From IMG/VR virus record IMGVR_UViG_2579779084_000014: DNA of 36,749 nt. One strand, written 5' to 3'. This DNA comes from a virus (Duplodnaviria; Heunggongvirae; Uroviricota; Caudoviricetes). Below are positions 27,946-36,749 of this stretch, in pieces. The translations under genes and the position numbers were made by a program. Under the pieces are notes generated by a model, which searched no databases, was not told the DNA's origin, and saw only the letters and a program-made list of their open reading frames with translations. The stretch's first letter is position 1. The number at the start of each line of letters is the position of its first letter.

Positions 27946-28233
27946 TTAAAGGGAAGCGAGTTTTAATGGTGGCTTATAACATGCCCGCGCCAGCAGGTTA
28001 GCTCTTTCCACGGCATTACGCATTTCCCGTTCTGCGTCAATCATTCTGTTTACGGCTGACAGCACTTCATCATGATTCGTTACTGATTCCGGGCTTTGGG
28101 CCTGTTTCGCCAGGTAACTGGATAAATTGCACATTTCAGCATGTCGGCGACGGGCTGCATCCCGGGCCTTGTCTGAAAATGCGGTATATTCACCGAGTAC
28201 TGCATAGTCGATATCGGTGTCAGAACGCATCAT
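27946..28233 (-). CDS. hypothetical protein (95 aa)
   Basis: Co-directional ORF; no motif recognised. Confidence 0.4.
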   Translation of the reverse strand: MMRSDTDIDYAVLGEYTAFSDKARDAARRRHAEMCNLSSYLAKQAQSPESVTNHDEVLSAVNRMIDAEREMRNAVERANLLARACYKPPLKLASL

Positions 28234-28260
28234 TTCGTGTCTCCTTTTTTCTGAGGCCCA

Positions 28261-28728
28261 TTAATCAAAAAGCCCCACCTGGGTGGGGCTTTTCAGCGAA
28301 GTCTGTTTTTGTCGTCGGTGTATCAGCTGCCATGCGTACCGGTCTGAAATCCCGTAGCGGGGACAGAGCAGTGCCAGCGCCTGCCGGTGTGAGCATCCGT
28401 CTTTTACATGCTGCTGTAAATCAGCCATAAAACGGGTGTTACGCAGGGCACGTAACGCATGATCACAACGGGGAATGTAAAACGGTGCACCGCCAAGAAA
28501 GCGGATCAGTTTGTTGATTTCGTCTTCGGTCAGCACATCATGTAACAGGGCATGGACACCGCCGGTGCGTCCGGCGTGTGCGCCGGTTTTACCGCTTAAC
28601 GTCACGCCACCAAAAGAACGGATTAACCGGGTCAGGGCGGGGAAGCCAATCACGCTAATCAGTTGCTGTACGGAATCGGGCAGCAGTGCCTGCGCATCGC
28701 GAAGATCTGTTTCACTGAAGGTCTGCAT
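28261..28728 (-). CDS. Mor/C-family transcriptional activator (middle/late gene activator)
   Basis: 155 aa; C-terminal HTH-like CPRYGISDRYAWQLIHRR resembling the Mor/C family; position between gemA and lysis genes. Confidence 0.65.
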   Translation of the reverse strand: MQTFSETDLRDAQALLPDSVQQLISVIGFPALTRLIRSFGGVTLSGKTGAHAGRTGGVHALLHDVLTEDEINKLIRFLGGAPFYIPRCDHALRALRNTRFMADLQQHVKDGCSHRQALALLCPRYGISDRYAWQLIHRRQKQTSLKSPTQVGLFD

Positions 28729-28757
28729 GATGGCGTCTCCGGTAGTAACTTACTGTT

Positions 28758-28763
28758 ATTATA
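28758..28763 (-). promoter_or_regulatory. candidate -10 hexamer (TATAAT) for the Mor/C-like gene
   Basis: Exact TATAAT on the minus strand about 30 nt upstream of the ATG at 28728, downstream of the terminator; GGAGA SD follows. Confidence 0.3.
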
Positions 28764-28786
28764 GCCATACATGATCGCCTGTACAG

Positions 28787-28817
28787 ACCACAAAAAAGCC
28801 CCTGCAAGGCAGGGGCT
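28787..28817 (-). terminator. rho-independent terminator between gemA-like and Mor/C-like genes
   Basis: Perfect 9-bp GC-rich stem AGCCCCTGC/GCAGGGGCT with a 3-nt loop, followed on the minus strand by TTTTTTG. Confidence 0.55.
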
Positions 28818-28823
28818 GATTCT

Positions 28824-29237
28824 TTATTGTTTACGTGCTGCTCTGGCTCGTTTTCTGGCGTCTTTTGTCAGCGCCACCATCACCCCGAACAGCTGATCAT
28901 CTGTCAGCCATTCGATCACATGTTGCTTATACATGTGAGATGCCAGTCCTTCCGCATACGCCCAGGAACGACCGGCATCAGCCAGCAACGCCTCAATTTT
29001 GGATAATACCGATTTTCTGCTCATTGCAACACGGGGGCGGCGACCTTTACCGGCGGGCGCTTTGCGCGGAAATCCCTGTTCGTGCATGTATTCCCGGATG
29101 ATGCGCAGTTCATCGAGATTGCAGCGTGTGGTGCTGGTTTTACCGGTCAGGCGGGCCAGCGTCTGACGATAAAGGGCATCATCCCACCCCAGATACGCCT
29201 GACCGGCTTTAATGGCTCCGATCATCTTTTTCAGCAT
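28824..29237 (-). CDS. gemA: GemA-like regulatory protein
   Basis: 137 aa from the internal ATG at 29237; MLKKMIGAIKAGQAYLGWDDALYRQ...RKAPAGKGRRP pattern matches the GemA family (by recollection); lies immediately upstream of a Mor/C-family gene as in Mu. Confidence 0.65.
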   Translation of the reverse strand: MLKKMIGAIKAGQAYLGWDDALYRQTLARLTGKTSTTRCNLDELRIIREYMHEQGFPRKAPAGKGRRPRVAMSRKSVLSKIEALLADAGRSWAYAEGLASHMYKQHVIEWLTDDQLFGVMVALTKDARKRARAARKQ

Positions 29238-29487
29238 GTTTGTTATCCTCAAAACGCACGGTAAAACGTGAAACACCAATCCCCGACAGGAACGCGGCGG
29301 CACGGTCAAGAGACAGCCACGTCTTGTAATCGCCACGGCGTTCCTGTAGAAAATAGGACACCCCGGCGCGGCGATTCACAGCGAAGAGGTGATACACACC
29401 ATCGAACCGCTGCACGACGAACTCATCCACGCCACCGCTTTCAGCCTGCTGCCGGAAGGCTGCCATTCCGATTTGTTCAATTTTCAT
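29209..29487 (-). CDS. hypothetical early protein (92 aa from MKIEQIG)
   Basis: Track ORF trimmed to the internal ATG; the track's N-terminal 12 codons are a translation of an operator-like palindrome. Confidence 0.45.
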   Translation of the reverse strand: MKIEQIGMAAFRQQAESGGVDEFVVQRFDGVYHLFAVNRRAGVSYFLQERRGDYKTWLSLDRAAAFLSGIGVSRFTVRFEDNKHAEKDDRSH

Positions 29488-29490
29488 AAT

Positions 29491-29537
29491 GACCAAAACA
29501 TTACTTTTGGCAGACCAAAACACATGTTTTGGTCTGC
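29491..29537. promoter_or_regulatory. operator-like array: 13-bp-arm palindrome GCAGACCAAAACA-CA-TGTTTTGGTCTGC plus a third direct GACCAAAACA copy
   Basis: Read directly from the sequence; ends 3 nt upstream of the ATG of the 92-aa gene (29487). Confidence 0.4.
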
Positions 29538-29641
29538 ATTTGATTACCGTTTAAACAACTCGCGAAATCAGGAACGTCGAGTTACGGTGATGGCTTTCAT
29601 CGTGTTGTTGCTCCGTGATTCAGAAAATTCCATATCAAGCC

Positions 29642-30052
29642 TCAGTATGTGAAATAGACAGTTGCCACGCCGTTATAGTGATCAAACGACACGGCGTTTA
29701 CCTCATAACTGGCCGGGAGCTTCGAGCCAAGAACGTATCCGGGCCACGTTTTCCATGGAATTTCTCTGCGCTCACTATCGCCATATACCGTACATCCCAG
29801 TGAGCCTACAGCTTCATTAGAACGCGTGCCGCACGTTATAAATCCCAGATTTTGCTTACTGCTCTTAATGGTGATTGGGTGAACGCTGGCTGATGCATTA
29901 GCAGCACGCTGTGCCTGTTGGTTTGCGATATTCGCAGAGTTCGCAGCAGCTACAGCAGCCGTAGTCGCGGCGGTAGAGGCTACAATAGCTGCTGAAGCAT
30001 GCACTTGTTGGGTAATTGTCAGCAATGCCGCCACAAAAACCATTTTCTTCAC
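29642..30052 (-). CDS. secreted/periplasmic protein with N-terminal signal peptide (moron candidate)
   Basis: MKKMVFVAALLTITQQVHA|SAA: basic N-region, hydrophobic core, AxA-type cleavage site; strong SD AAGGAGGTG upstream; alanine-rich mature part. Confidence 0.6.
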   Translation of the reverse strand: MKKMVFVAALLTITQQVHASAAIVASTAATTAAVAAANSANIANQQAQRAANASASVHPITIKSSKQNLGFITCGTRSNEAVGSLGCTVYGDSERREIPWKTWPGYVLGSKLPASYEVNAVSFDHYNGVATVYFTY

Positions 30053-30064
30053 CTGGCACCTCCT

Positions 30065-30244
30065 TTACATACCGTGATTTTTCCAGCGGTTTTGGGCTGC
30101 GCTTCTGTTTCGCCAGACACCGTAAAAACGAATAGAGGACCACTCCCTAAAACCAAGATATCTATAGCGAACAACAAGCCGATTTGAGATACGGATAAGC
30201 TGTCCGGGTTTTGCTATCAGCAGTCTTGCTTTACGGTTTTTCAT
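30065..30244 (-). CDS. possible unannotated 59-aa highly basic small protein (MKNRKARLLIAKPGQLIRISNRLVVRYRYLGFREWSSIRFYGVWRNRSAAQNRWKNHGM)
   Basis: Below the 60-aa track cutoff; ATG 5 nt after the upstream stop, preceded by GGAGA; its stop directly precedes the AGGAGGTG of the next gene. Confidence 0.3.
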   Translation of the reverse strand: MKNRKARLLIAKPGQLIRISNRLVVRYRYLGFREWSSIRFYGVWRNRSAAQNRWKNHGM

Positions 30245-30248
30245 CGTT

Positions 30249-30437
30249 TCATTCTCCTGTATTTACCACTGACTCTGCACTATCAGCCCTGCGGCGCGCC
30301 TGAAGTTCCAGCATTGCGGCCCGGAAATCCTGCCACCATACCTCATCGGCAACGGGGGTGTTCCGATCCAGCACCTTGTCCGCATCGGCAATCAGTCTGG
30401 CCAGGCTCTTATCGCTTATTCTGGTTTGCTGGTTCAC
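30249..30437 (-). CDS. hypothetical small protein (62 aa)
   Basis: Co-directional ORF, 4-nt overlap with the upstream gene. Confidence 0.35.
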   Translation of the reverse strand: MNQQTRISDKSLARLIADADKVLDRNTPVADEVWWQDFRAAMLELQARRRADSAESVVNTGE

Positions 30438-30658
30438 TGCGCCGCCTCCTGTTTTGCCACTTTAAACGCCCGTAACATCGGGACCCTCTTACCGTAGATG
30501 ACGGTTCTCATTAAAAGGCCTCCATCACTCTTATGGTGCACTTCAGGGGCCACAAACAGCGCCGCATCCACAACCCGGCAATAGTGACGGAACTCCCAGA
30601 ACCAGCAGGAAATAGTGATAACTGCGGTACCATTGTGTTCATAAAATTCAATATTCAT
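30434..30658 (-). CDS. hypothetical small protein (74 aa)
   Basis: Co-directional ORF, 4-nt overlap with the upstream gene. Confidence 0.4.
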   Translation of the reverse strand: MNIEFYEHNGTAVITISCWFWEFRHYCRVVDAALFVAPEVHHKSDGGLLMRTVIYGKRVPMLRAFKVAKQEAAQ

Positions 30659-30882
30659 TTGCAGTTAAACCTCCTTTTATGGCGTTCTACGGCGGCTTTC
30701 ATGGCGTTGTGCACGGTTCTTTTAATAATCCGGCGTCCCGCACTGTCATAGAACCGCCACCGGGAAGCCCCCGGATATCCGGGGAACTCAACCGCTGCGC
30801 TACCGTCATCCATCCTGTATTCGTGGCGTTCTCCGGGCGGCTGGTATATTGCTTCGGTAACACTGAGAAGTTTAAAAGCCAT
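30655..30882 (-). CDS. hypothetical small protein (75 aa)
   Basis: Co-directional ORF abutting neighbours. Confidence 0.4.
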   Translation of the reverse strand: MAFKLLSVTEAIYQPPGERHEYRMDDGSAAVEFPGYPGASRWRFYDSAGRRIIKRTVHNAMKAAVERHKRRFNCK

Positions 30883-30884
30883 CG

Positions 30885-31595
30885 TTACACCCTCCCCAGT
30901 GCCAGCGTTTTGTTGCTCTGACCATTAACCCCCTGATGCAGTCTGGCGTTTTTCCCGGCGATAAAACCGGCTGTAGCGGCAGACTCTGCACCCCGGCACG
31001 CTTTAGCGGTGCGCATATCCCCGTCGCGCAGTCCCTTGGTGCTGTGCAGGTTCTTTCTGTAAAGCTCAAGGCGGCTTTTTTCTTCCGGGGAGACGTCATA
31101 CACCGCAATGACATCACGGGCACCAAAGACCCAGCCTTCGCAGAACTGGTCGCCACGGGCCACCCGCGTGGACGGGCCGCAACGTTTGCAGTGTTTATCC
31201 TGATATTTCTTGCGCTCTGCCATCATCTGACGGGAAAGCACATCAAACGCGTAGGCCGCGATTTCCGGGCGGCTGTCAGGACCATAAAAACGAACGTAAC
31301 GTTTGAGTGAACCAGAAGCCCGGTATTCGCCGGAGATGTAACACTCGACACCGAAGGCTTTACAGACCAGGTCACACAGGATGTGCATATAACGCGGCGG
31401 TGTACTGGCATCACTCGGCGCACCCGCGCTGGCAGCGTCCTGAATGTCGAACAATTCCGCGTCGTTTTCGCTGATACCATGCTGGCGCATATAAGCCTGG
31501 GCTTTTGCAATAGCGTTAGCGGCTTCTTCCGGGCTTGATGTCCCTCTTGCAAGGCGTAACAGCTTTTTAATTTTGGCGATGTATTTATTTTTCAT
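30885..31595 (-). CDS. DUF2786-like prophage protein
   Basis: 236 aa; N-terminus KIKKLLRLARGTSSPEEAANAIAKAQAYM is the characteristic DUF2786 helix pattern (from memory); cysteine-rich C-terminal part. Confidence 0.6.
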   Translation of the reverse strand: MKNKYIAKIKKLLRLARGTSSPEEAANAIAKAQAYMRQHGISENDAELFDIQDAASAGAPSDASTPPRYMHILCDLVCKAFGVECYISGEYRASGSLKRYVRFYGPDSRPEIAAYAFDVLSRQMMAERKKYQDKHCKRCGPSTRVARGDQFCEGWVFGARDVIAVYDVSPEEKSRLELYRKNLHSTKGLRDGDMRTAKACRGAESAATAGFIAGKNARLHQGVNGQSNKTLALGRV

Positions 31596-34706: not shown

Positions 34707-36749
34707 TTAACGGTTGTTTGTGCCGTTTTTCTTTAAATTGCGCTCGCGTTCAGATGCGAATAAATAAAGTTCTTCTTTTTCCTTTTTCTCCGGGCGCTCC
34801 AGACCAAATCCAAAATTAAACTCAGATTTCTGCGTAATAGCCGGGGTAAGCTCGCGTTTAGCCTCTTCGATTTTCTGCGTGGCCCGTGCAATGCGGCCTC
34901 TGACGCGTTTCTCCAGTTTTTGCTCGATAACTGGTTTAGCGAAGGCATCAACCTTATTGCCGTTCCAGATGGCATCGCAGATATAAGAGCCATCAGCCCG
35001 ACGGACAATGACACTGTTTGCGTCATGAATATCGTAACTGACCCTGACTTCATTCCCGTGCTCTGCGGCCAGTTCATACGAGTAATAAATATTGTTGAAT
35101 AACTGAATTTCCCCGCGAAATGTTTTGCGCGTCACTTCCGGCCTGAACATTTCATGCAGTTCTTCCTGCGACAGAAAATCAATTTCAACATTCTGCTCTT
35201 TTATCAGTTTCCGGCGATACGCTGCCGGGCTGTAATATTCGCCATCCTCTTTGCGGGGAAGGCTGCTGTGTGGCCGGTTGTTATAGCGTCTGACCTCCAG
35301 CTCTATGGCGGCCATCAGTTGCTCAAAGGTGGGGATTTCATCCCTCGCCTTAACCTGCCGTTTTGTCAGTTCTTTCCCTTTGTGGGTGGCCTTAATGGCC
35401 GACTGCATAATCCGTTGCTGCATCATTACGGTTTCCTTGTCTGCATCCTTTGCGCAGTACGTCTGGAAACTCAGTGCCACGTCTTTGGGTATTCCTTTGT
35501 TTGCCCGTTCTATTACCCCGCGCCCCTGCGGGTTACCCGGTATCCCCGTGTGATGCTCCACACCCAGCCGGGGCAGAATCCCGGTAATATCGGCATCAAG
35601 CACCCGGTTTTTTTCGCCGCCCCCGTTATCGGAATAATAAATCAGCGGTATCCCGTGCTGTGCCATGCCGTAACGCAACGCATCAGCAACGGCTATCACG
35701 TTTTCCGACAGGGACAGTGACCAGCCCACAACAAAGCGCTGCCCCGCATCCATAACCAGCGTCACTTCTGGCCGGAAAATATTGCCGGTCAGGGGGTTAA
35801 ACGCGGTCATTTTCATACAGTGACCATCCCCGACCCATACCGCATTAACCGGTAATGATGTCCACTCGCGCCGCACAAAGGGATTGAGCGAACGCCAGGC
35901 TGAACCTGTGGAGCGGAAACGCTCCTTAACAATCACCGGGACGCTGCTTAACACTCGTCTTACTGCGTGAACTGAAGGCAGTGCCGCCAGCATTCCCGCA
36001 TCATTCGCGTGTTTCTCATGCCACCAGGCTGAAAACTCGCGATAAGCGTATTCAACGGTCGGGCGCTTCCATGAGCGATAGAACATAAAGAAATCGCTCA
36101 GCCACCAGACCTGCTCCCACGGAGTTCCCTTATGATGACCGGGAGCCAGTAACGCCAGTAACTGATTGGCATCACCGCGCGCCATCACCCAGCTGGAGTA
36201 CCAGCTATCCAGGCTGCCGGTGCTGACACCGGTTCGCTTTCCCTGACGTGCATTTGCAGTATTCGCTGCTTCGATAATGCGGTCAGGTAACGCCCCCATG
36301 CGCACACCATCAACGATGTGCTTTAACGCGGCCTTCCTGGTCATTCCGGCGTATTCACGCAGTTTATGCACTTCAGTAGCCAGCAATATCCGCGCATCAG
36401 CAATGGCCTTTTGCTTGTCGGTCAGTGCCTGGACTTCGCGTAATGCCAGTTCCGGGCATTTGACCATCACTTCCAGTTCATCGCGAACGGCGACGTTTTT
36501 AACTGCCTTCTGCTCAACCACGGCGGGCAGTTGTGCATCTTCCAGGACCTGATGAGTCAGGCGCTTACGTAAAACTTTCTGCGCTTCAGCGGGCAGGCTG
36601 TCGATGTGATACTCGAATGCTTTTGTGCCTTCACGCTTGCGCTTCCATTCCGGGTGCGTCTCTGTGATCCGATTGAGCGTCCATCGCACCCCCTGAACTG
36701 TACCGGGCAAACGAGGAAGACCGGCCAGCTCATTGGCTGAATAAAACAT
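34707..36749 (-). CDS. A: Mu-type DDE transposase (MuA-like); ORF reaches the window edge so the true start may lie beyond 36749
   Basis: 680 aa. N-terminus (ANELAGLPRLPGT...) resembles the MuA N-terminus; catalytic-core-like motifs VWVGDGH and YYSDNGGG; sits directly upstream of a MuB-like gene as in Mu. Confidence 0.85.
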   Translation of the reverse strand: MFYSANELAGLPRLPGTVQGVRWTLNRITETHPEWKRKREGTKAFEYHIDSLPAEAQKVLRKRLTHQVLEDAQLPAVVEQKAVKNVAVRDELEVMVKCPELALREVQALTDKQKAIADARILLATEVHKLREYAGMTRKAALKHIVDGVRMGALPDRIIEAANTANARQGKRTGVSTGSLDSWYSSWVMARGDANQLLALLAPGHHKGTPWEQVWWLSDFFMFYRSWKRPTVEYAYREFSAWWHEKHANDAGMLAALPSVHAVRRVLSSVPVIVKERFRSTGSAWRSLNPFVRREWTSLPVNAVWVGDGHCMKMTAFNPLTGNIFRPEVTLVMDAGQRFVVGWSLSLSENVIAVADALRYGMAQHGIPLIYYSDNGGGEKNRVLDADITGILPRLGVEHHTGIPGNPQGRGVIERANKGIPKDVALSFQTYCAKDADKETVMMQQRIMQSAIKATHKGKELTKRQVKARDEIPTFEQLMAAIELEVRRYNNRPHSSLPRKEDGEYYSPAAYRRKLIKEQNVEIDFLSQEELHEMFRPEVTRKTFRGEIQLFNNIYYSYELAAEHGNEVRVSYDIHDANSVIVRRADGSYICDAIWNGNKVDAFAKPVIEQKLEKRVRGRIARATQKIEEAKRELTPAITQKSEFNFGFGLERPEKKEKEELYLFASERERNLKKNGTNNR

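Follow-up and report, generated by a model that had tools for sequence, protein, structure and literature searches.

A selected tandem-dyad array before a 92-residue early gene of a Mu-like Escherichia coli prophage, possibly a structured mRNA leader

The IMG/VR virus record IMGVR_UViG_2579779084_000014, analyzed here over its whole length of 36,749 nucleotides (nt; the window), comes from Escherichia coli and is a prophage of the Mu-like (transposable) type, with all genes on one strand and read on the - strand. Immediately in front of an early gene for a 92-amino-acid (92-aa) protein, in the 154-nt gap that separates it from a gene for a 136-aa protein, lies an array of inverted and direct repeats. 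The locus raises the question of what such an array does at the start of a gene, and whether it acts as DNA or as RNA. Judged by sequence comparison, the array is a selected cis-element tied to the 92-aa gene and is functional in the evolutionary sense. As to its mode of action, the reading favored here is possible but tentative: from the comparisons and the predicted folds, the array may be a structured mRNA leader or translational operator for the 92-aa gene and, probably, for the gemA homologue that follows it as well.

On the gene (-) strand, positions 29537-29491 read GCAGACCAAAACA-TG-TGTTTTGGTCTGC-CAAAAGTAA-TGTTTTGGTC, followed by att and the ATG. The first part, GCAGACCAAAACA-TG-TGTTTTGGTCTGC (29510-29537), is a 28-nt palindrome with arms of 13 nt each at 29525-29537 and 29510-29522, which are 100% complementary and separated by 2 nt; on re-reading, the sequence and coordinates of the array matched the first-pass annotation exactly. 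Downstream of the second arm come 9 nt (CAAAAGTAA), a third TGTTTTGGTC at 29491-29500, ATT, and the ATG at 29487-29485. The exact 10-mer TGTTTTGGTC has three copies, all in the array, with no others across the 36.7-kb window. The fuller layout consists of two CCAAAA-N6-TTTTGG dyads set 22 nt apart. Dyad 1 (29515-29532, with CCAAAA at 29527-29532 and TTTTGG at 29515-29520) is extended to the 13-bp arms and is also referred to as hairpin 1, while dyad 2 (CCAAAA-GTAATG-TTTTGG, 29493-29510) lies 22 nt downstream as a 22-nt direct repeat. The left arm of dyad 2 is a fourth, partial segment, CCAAAA at 29505-29510, and the array can therefore be described as two tandem 22-nt units; the right arm belongs to the third TGTTTTGGTC and sits at the usual Shine-Dalgarno position. 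Complementary segments thus alternate along the array as A, B, A' and C, four in all, with the possible pairings A:B, B:A', A':C and A:C. The units are joined by the 4-nt linker TCTG (29511-29514), which would form the loop of the alternative B:A' hairpin, TTTTGG-tctg-CCAAAA. The 5' flank at 29538-29547 is semi-conserved (TAATCAAAT, AATCAAGC or AACCAATA), and just 5' of it lies a mosaic joint with a variable upstream gene slot.

The two dyads were the sole matches in the window with <2 mismatches, weaker matches occurring at chance level (18 found versus 20 expected). When 2.9 million IMG/VR contigs were scanned with the exact 24-base tandem-dyad pattern, 19 contained it, and 18 of these carried the same element; degenerate scans with 14-15 specified bases gave mostly chance matches, and the 24-base pattern alone was informative. 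A search for further half-sites elsewhere in the element had been proposed in the first-pass annotation. None was found in the whole window or in the left-end and repressor regions of two relatives, and no further exact or 1-mismatch dyad was present in the window or in relatives L001 and L287, the repressor, ner and left-end regions included.

The position of the array relative to the coding sequence depends on the start codon. In the list of open reading frames (ORFs), a 104-aa ORF (29209-29523) begins at a GTG at 29523, within the loop of hairpin 1. This in-frame GTG (29521-29523) is replaced by ATG in most relatives and is the source of spurious 104-aa calls, which are repeated by many gene callers and include cluster P0001 (104 aa) with 337 members. 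That an ORF reading through the palindrome is an artifact had been suspected beforehand and was borne out: the ATG at 29487 is the true start of the 92-aa gene (29209-29487, phrog_7844, no Pfam), as indicated by the call of the Prokaryotic Genome Annotation Pipeline (PGAP) and by divergent homologues from Erwinia, Intestinirhabdus, Leminorella and metagenomes, all of which begin MK(I/T)E. The same beginnings, in distant homologues, led to rejection of the array as an N-terminal extension of the 92-aa protein. An upstream ORF or leader peptide starting from the loop ATG/GTG was also rejected, its frame differing between close variants (ATG indices 13-15 versus 15-17). The reported absence of a Shine-Dalgarno sequence was likewise upheld, the best anti-Shine-Dalgarno duplex of the 92-aa gene, at -2.2 kcal/mol, being the weakest among 29 prophage genes, for which a range of -3.9 to -12.9 kcal/mol was given.

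The array was found to be tightly linked to the gene. The 92-aa gene is present in 58/5426 complete E. coli genomes, and precisely these 58 contain the array; it is also kept in all 20 IMG/VR loci, in 7 metagenome loci and in E2348/69, which carries a natural copy at NC_011601 2725042-2725320. Loss of the palindrome from relatives that keep the gene, named in the first-pass annotation as the outcome that would speak against a regulatory role, was not seen in any of the 58/58 genomes or the 27 IMG/VR and metagenome loci. By comparison, the sequence 5' of the array is of at least four unrelated kinds, with the mosaic joint falling within ~10 nt of the palindrome. Among 20 distinct E. coli-clade sequences, 49/93 (53%) of the third codon positions of the 92-aa gene vary, versus 11 columns of the 47-nt array and about 5/37 columns outside the two N6 centers. 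The varying columns are those of the loop and N6 centers, the outermost pair, two transitions giving G.U, and a change of TC to CA in one sequence; the arms of dyad 2 are invariant within this clade, while its N6 center is free to vary. Since the arms are far less variable than third codon positions, the element is under purifying selection, with the loop and N6 positions exempt.

Upstream regions of all reachable lineages align gap-free on the two 22-nt units, and distant relatives from Erwinia, Intestinirhabdus and Leminorella keep both. In Erwinia (L155) the region reads CCAAAA TAATCA TTTTGG TAAA CCAGAA TAACCG GAATGG cgtt ATG, and in L289 it reads CCAAAT TGAACA ATTTGG TAAA CCAAAA TAACCG GAATGG. 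The extensions of the stem are lineage specific: E. coli has GCAGA/TCTGC, Erwinia L155 has TTA/TAA, and L289 has the inner TG/CA pairs of ACCAAATTG/CAATTTGGT. Over 21 sequences, dyad 1 gave a covariation of 0.194 with 79.8% of cells paired; shuffles gave 0.105, with 0/500 reaching 0.194, and slid registers gave ≤0.087. With three lineages added, pair 15-20 occurs as C-G, T-A, G-C, A-T and T-G, and pair 14-21 as A-T or T-A, while the E2348/69 copy carries a compensated C-G to A-T change in dyad 1. Few independent events underlie this covariation, and the outer CCA and TGG, mostly CCAAA/TTTGG, are conserved as sequence across lineages. Dyad 1 seems to have been kept family-wide as a hairpin by compensatory changes, which argues for a nucleic-acid stem more than for fixed protein half-sites.

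The second unit behaves differently. The A':C dyad, and hence the third repeat, is restricted to the E. coli clade; elsewhere the right arm is GAATGG or GATTGG with a GGA Shine-Dalgarno-like triplet. The earlier description of an operator-like triple array is accordingly exact for the E. coli clade, with its three copies, but does not extend to distant relatives, which lack the triple layout. No covariation was detected for dyad 2, the pairing of which is lost beyond the E. coli clade, and the B:A' pairing was 90.5% paired with weak covariation over 21 sequences. In three relatives (L020, L021 and L150), an upstream ORF runs through unit 1 and ends in the N6 of unit 2. The idea that the array is the remnant of the C-terminus of such a read-through ORF was discarded, the TAA register being off by 1 nt.

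Folded as RNA, hairpin 1 is predicted to form a 12-bp stem with a tetraloop and 6 G-C pairs, at -18.4 kcal/mol, and it is present in both the minimum free energy (MFE) and the centroid predictions of a 191-nt context. In the E. coli clade, the 56-nt leader taken by itself was predicted to have two folds within ~3 kcal/mol of each other. One consists of hairpin 1 plus a weak hairpin 2, and the other is a long hairpin (A:C plus B:A'), the MFE structure of the segment at -21.8 kcal/mol, in which positions -13 to -4 are buried. Such bistability is an automatic outcome of tandem palindromes and is missing in distant lineages.

On the favored reading, the leader of the early polycistronic mRNA would act in cis, as RNA, on the initiation of translation of the 92-aa gene, with a probable effect on gemA through the 29-nt overlap between the two genes. 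The ancestral, family-wide part would be the stem-loop of dyad 1 (CCAAAA N / loop / N' UUUUGG), ending ~20-30 nt upstream of the AUG, and the ribosome-binding region would lie in the second 22-nt unit. Within the E. coli clade, the stem would have lengthened to 12-13 bp and the right arm of unit 2 would have become a second UGUUUUGGUC, 3 nt before the AUG; together, the longer stem and the second UGUUUUGGUC copy would allow the leader to take two nearly isoenergetic folds. In fold I, hairpin 1 would leave the A/U-rich ribosome-binding region largely open, and in fold II, a single long hairpin, segment A would pair with the third repeat and bury positions -13 to -4. The fold present would set the translation rate, and the choice might be made by co-transcriptional folding, which would favor fold I, or by a factor binding the sequence-conserved lower stem. 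Among candidates for such a factor, the product of the 92-aa gene itself is the only one invariably found together with the array.

The evidence between RNA and DNA as the active form is divided. A nucleic-acid stem, in the simplest case one in the mRNA, is suggested by the multiple pair types, the lineage-specific extensions, the location at the ribosome-binding position of a gene without a Shine-Dalgarno sequence, the lack of a promoter and the restriction to a single locus. Several observations weigh against the RNA reading. CCAAA/TTTGG is conserved in sequence and not in pairing alone, which fits sequence-specific recognition, possibly of DNA, and the 22-bp spacing (two helical turns) and 6-N6-6 layout resemble tandem operators. 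Hairpin 1 as RNA has little stability in distant lineages (-1 to -9 kcal/mol), where neither fold sequesters the ribosome-binding region, the mean unpaired probability of which is an ordinary 0.3-0.6 as predicted in a 171-nt context. Uncompensated departures also occur in distant lineages, namely CCAGAC/TTATGG in L153 and CCAAAA/TTATGG in L152. Among stem mismatches, G.U and A.C showed no strand asymmetry (8 versus 7 internal cells), so that nothing specifically favors gene-strand RNA over double-stranded or cruciform DNA. Finally, a single template-switch (quasipalindrome) mutation can yield symmetric double changes in palindromes, and if the symmetric changes arose in this way, the covariation would overstate selection for pairing. 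Of the proposal in the first-pass annotation that the array is a regulatory site at the translation start bound by a dimeric regulator, the cis-regulatory character and the link to translation are thus plausible; the dimeric regulator is unproven, no binding protein having been found.

A more specific form of translational control would be an autoregulatory operator, in which the 92-aa protein, resembling eL38, would bind the CCAAA/UUUGG lower stem of the mRNA that encodes it and tilt the leader toward the open or the closed fold. This is considered quite unlikely. If true, such autoregulation would set the level of the 92-aa protein and GemA, also during lysogeny, where the Mu gem operon is reportedly expressed, and transposable phages would be seen to have a new family of small RNA-binding proteins, paired with a cognate operator.

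The regulatory readings have to be set against the possibility that hairpin 1 is passive and has no regulator, serving as an insulating, stabilizing or processing stem-loop on the border between the upstream slot and the 92-aa/gemA module. It might protect the 3' end of the upstream transcript or the 5' end of a processed downstream mRNA, or it might prevent the A/U-rich ribosome-binding region from pairing with upstream insertions. The mosaic joint within ~10 nt of the 5' edge of the hairpin and the at least four unrelated upstream genes agree with this, as does the strength of the stem, which is high (-15 to -18 kcal/mol) in the clade with the variable slot and low where the upstream gene is fixed or reads through (L020, L021 and L150); furthermore, the related dyad of two lambdoid prophage loci (L045 and L171, described below) likewise borders an inserted toxin-antitoxin module. 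A passive role is nonetheless regarded as fairly unlikely, for it would leave unexplained the conserved CCAAA/TTTGG core, the second unit and the 22-nt register in all lineages, as well as the invariant third repeat of the E. coli clade, and a canonical RNase III site would need a longer stem. A further possibility is a DNA operator, consisting of two tandem 18-bp dyads, 22 bp center to center, bound cooperatively by a dimeric phage or host protein that would repress or block transcription into the 92-aa/gemA unit or control an unrecognized "gem operon" promoter. The 6-N6-6 layout with invariant arms and a free center, the exact 22-bp spacing in every lineage, the conservation of the core among lineages with 55-100% identical proteins and the uncompensated departures in distant lineages are all consistent with this. 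The tandem dyad in the unrelated L045 and the single unit in L171 hint at a shared trans-acting factor, and the Mu gem operon's constitutive expression in lysogens, as far as the citing passage in PMC3820752 goes, would imply that the operon has its own control region. A DNA operator is still judged unlikely. No sigma-70-like promoter was found within 700 nt of the array on either strand, the nearest being at 28758-28785, and the only -10-like spot, in the N6 of dyad 2, is not conserved, its candidate -10 positions varying among close relatives. No other sites were found in the phage, repressor and left-end regions included; the sole constantly co-occurring protein has no DNA-binding fold; the non-core stem positions covary with many pair types in a way that fixed protein contacts would not explain; and dyad 2 lacks dyad symmetry beyond the E. 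coli clade.

Two further explanations would dispense with a function of the array as a leader or operator. It might be a neutral or recombinogenic quasipalindrome, produced by a 22-bp tandem duplication and kept symmetric by template-switch repair, and at most a joint at which modules recombine. The 22-bp unit does vary in copy number (one in L171, two in L045), module boundaries fall at the palindrome, and symmetric double changes are a known signature of quasipalindrome mutation; this origin is very unlikely, however, given that only ~5/37 non-N6 columns vary versus 53% of third codon positions, that the element persists where the proteins are only 55-70% identical, and that it was retained in 58/58 genomes. 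The other explanation places the function on the + strand, where hairpin 1 followed by ATTTGATTA might terminate an antisense RNA of two hairpins, ~55 nt long and complementary to the leader, that would begin near the CATAAT overlapping the start codon. The scan flagged the + strand hairpin (29510-29537, with the tail ATTTGATTAC) as terminator-like, the T-rich tail NNTTGRTTA is semi-conserved over different flank types, and the E. coli clade keeps CATAAT, which is ATTATG on the opposite strand. It is not conserved in distant lineages, though, and no acceptable -35 lies at 16-19 bp from it, the promoter scan having reported none; in addition, the U-tract is interrupted and Rfam gave no match, which makes an antisense terminator highly improbable.

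A number of more conventional identities for the array were tried and rejected. Scanning and manual inspection found no acceptable sense or antisense sigma-70 promoter within it. An intrinsic terminator on the gene strand was dismissed, as a G+C-rich stem is present but CAAAAGUAAUG follows it, with no U-run. A leader-peptide attenuator was dismissed as well: the alternative pairings do exist in the E. coli clade, but ORFs starting in the loop change frame among close variants and the 3:4 pairing is not followed by a U-run. In a check on a Mor/C-dependent promoter, none of the window's lysis, head and tail operons was found to have a similar dyad upstream. The array was also considered as a MuA end-binding site or pseudo-end; for the window-type left end, the repeats are ATTCTGGGCG, and a site similar to TGTTTTGGTC was absent at ≤1 mismatch, while the occurrence of TGTTTTGATC at L001:1095 was within chance expectation, and the MuA of L001 differs from that of the window. 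In Rfam 15, the best matches of the array reached 17.7-18.7 bits (E 2-4) versus gathering scores of ~55. To the motifs of known E. coli regulators (TyrR, PdhR/FadR/ExuR-type TTGGT-N-ACCAA, CRP, Fis, IHF and CsrA), the array bears a putative resemblance, in layout alone.

Compared with known systems, the array is an uncatalogued example in a familiar class of phage leader hairpins and operators. Like the coat protein/replicase operator of MS2/R17 and the Mu Com/mom leader, it is a conserved stem-loop at the initiation region of one phage gene, single-copy per genome, tightly gene-linked and partly sequence-conserved in its stem. It differs from these in having two tandem units and no identifiable binding protein, and neither in sequence nor in Rfam was a similarity seen; the Com protein has a zinc finger, and the array adjoins no gene of this type. 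In addition, its hairpin ends 22 nt before the AUG and does not contain it. The four segments, with their two nearly isoenergetic predicted folds, recall the MS2 maturation-gene leader, hok mRNA and attenuators. One fold buries the region upstream of the AUG and co-transcriptional order would favor the open fold first; the array nevertheless has no leader peptide with regulatory codons and no 3:4 U-run terminator, and only members of the E. coli clade could make the switch. With the tandem repressor operators of temperate phages (lambda OR/OL, P22 and 434) it shares dyads of 14-18 bp, conserved arms, a variable center and a spacing of about two helical turns, but the phage operators lie over promoters and are repeated in at least two control regions, whereas the array has no promoter, occupies one locus and has a covarying stem. 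It is a stable intergenic stem-loop like intrinsic (Rho-independent) terminators, and terminator-like on the + strand, but the gene-strand stem has no U-tract.

The 92-aa protein forms a small family of 20 clusters at 90% identity, with no Pfam and with PHROG families of unknown function. The product is an eL38-like alpha/beta protein and the only gene product always accompanying the array; neither a helix-turn-helix nor a ribbon-helix-helix DNA-binding fold was found in it. A tblastn search of the protein against 50,697 phage genomes gave no match, and there is therefore no cultured phage model; a second profile search yielded no lineages beyond those of the first. Two E. coli clusters, P0009 and P0012, contain frameshifted copies of the gene, in which the alignment departs after about residue 45-55 and in one of which gemA reading frames are fused on; they belong to decaying prophages and retain the N-terminal part. 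CGGAATGG, the Shine-Dalgarno-like upstream segment of the Erwinia, Intestinirhabdus and metagenome relatives, recurs in the window at 29465-29473, where it constitutes codons 6-8, ATC GGA ATG (I-G-M), inside the coding region of the 92-aa gene. Gene callers at times pick this internal Met, giving 72-aa calls in L154, L158 and L290.

As a conserved control element always attached upstream of gemA, the array offers a handle on how and when this module is expressed, and recognition of the hairpin corrects the widespread annotation error represented by the 104-aa calls of P0001. With a small family (20 protein clusters; 58/5426 E. coli genomes) and a familiar class of element, the general impact is modest. 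GemA and its neighbors, within the semi-essential early region of Mu-like phages, are molecularly still uncharacterized (PMC12407980). According to the citation of Paolozzi & Ghelardini (1992) in PMC3820752, the Mu gem operon is constitutive in lysogens, and the same citing text has it altering host phenotype even in lysogens.

The region around the array, over 1.3 kb, is 100% identical to several E. coli chromosomes. On one identical chromosome, PGAP lists, in order, the repressor, a ner-like gene, MuA, MuB, small early genes, DUF3164, DUF2786, the 136-aa protein (29642-30052), the 92-aa hypothetical protein (29209-29487), GemA (28824-29237) and Mor (28261-28728), beyond which lie holins, endolysin, terminase and structural genes. 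The gemA homologue (28824-29237, - strand; Pfam GemA, 1.7e-18; PGAP "regulatory protein GemA") overlaps the 3' end of the 92-aa gene at its start by 29 nt, and the pair is therefore probably co-expressed. Past gemA, 690 nt downstream of the array, an intrinsic terminator-like hairpin, AGCCCCTGC-ctt-GCAGGGGCT followed by TTTTTT (28797-28817, - strand), closes the 92-aa/gemA unit. Right after it comes a promoter, TGTACA-16-TATAAT, with 10/12 matches, the only good sigma-70-like promoter in 28000-31000, and the two together occupy 28758-28817 on the - strand between gemA and mor. In Mu, mor is the last gene of the early transcript; here, a terminator followed by a promoter makes mor look like a separate transcription unit.

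The slot upstream of the array (29642-30052 in the window; L004-L019, L143-L149 and L286) carries different genes in different relatives. In the window it is occupied by the 136-aa protein, which has a hydrophobic N-terminus and a strong Shine-Dalgarno sequence (phrog_8805), and elsewhere by an ead/Ea22-like protein and others; with a mosaic joint within ~10 nt of the palindrome, it behaves like a "moron" slot. Mosaicism extends to the left arm. The N-terminus of MuA reads MFYSANELAG... in the window (position 36749) versus MWITAKECAG... in relative L001 (2352), despite 100% identical 92-aa/gemA regions, and the left arm and the gem region are thus mosaic relative to each other. In L287 (1600-1770), a window-type left end beside uspA in RIVM_C036569 contains three spaced ATTCTGGGCG repeats, which are probably the MuA end-binding sites L1-L3. 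The right end in NZ_AP041814 showed just another prophage and was uninformative.

The same dyad was also encountered outside Mu-like elements. In L045 (5942-5981), a fragment of an unrelated lambdoid prophage, two tandem CCAAAA-N6-TTTTGG units with a 22-bp period sit in the nin region, flanked by a DUF551 gene and a phd/doc-like toxin-antitoxin pair, and an E. coli relative of L045 (L171, 2700-2722) has a single 22-bp unit at the equivalent place. The number of 22-bp units is therefore variable, and it is conceivable that a shared factor acts on the lambdoid and Mu-like dyads. The lambdoid dyad is preceded by GGAGGAA and two terminator-like hairpins. A conserved peptide starting from the GGAGG and GTG before the L045 dyad was rejected, the ORF having 19 codons in L045 and 4 in L171.

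Two observations concern the prophages of particular strains. In strain JNE21-009 (L001, 1-945, and L159; NZ_AP041814.1, 1134000-1142000 and 1178770-1179807), the Mu-like prophage appears to be inserted in another prophage, with tail tape-measure genes on one side and a baseplate assembly gene directly beside the Mu-like repressor on the other. Leminorella grimontii CP146357.1 (L150 and L151; 47967-54209 and 3524903-3531145) contains two copies of a related Mu-like early region, with an HNH_3 gene between the homologue and gemA. The upstream sequences examined were identical between the two copies and the gene order nearly so, as expected after transposition.

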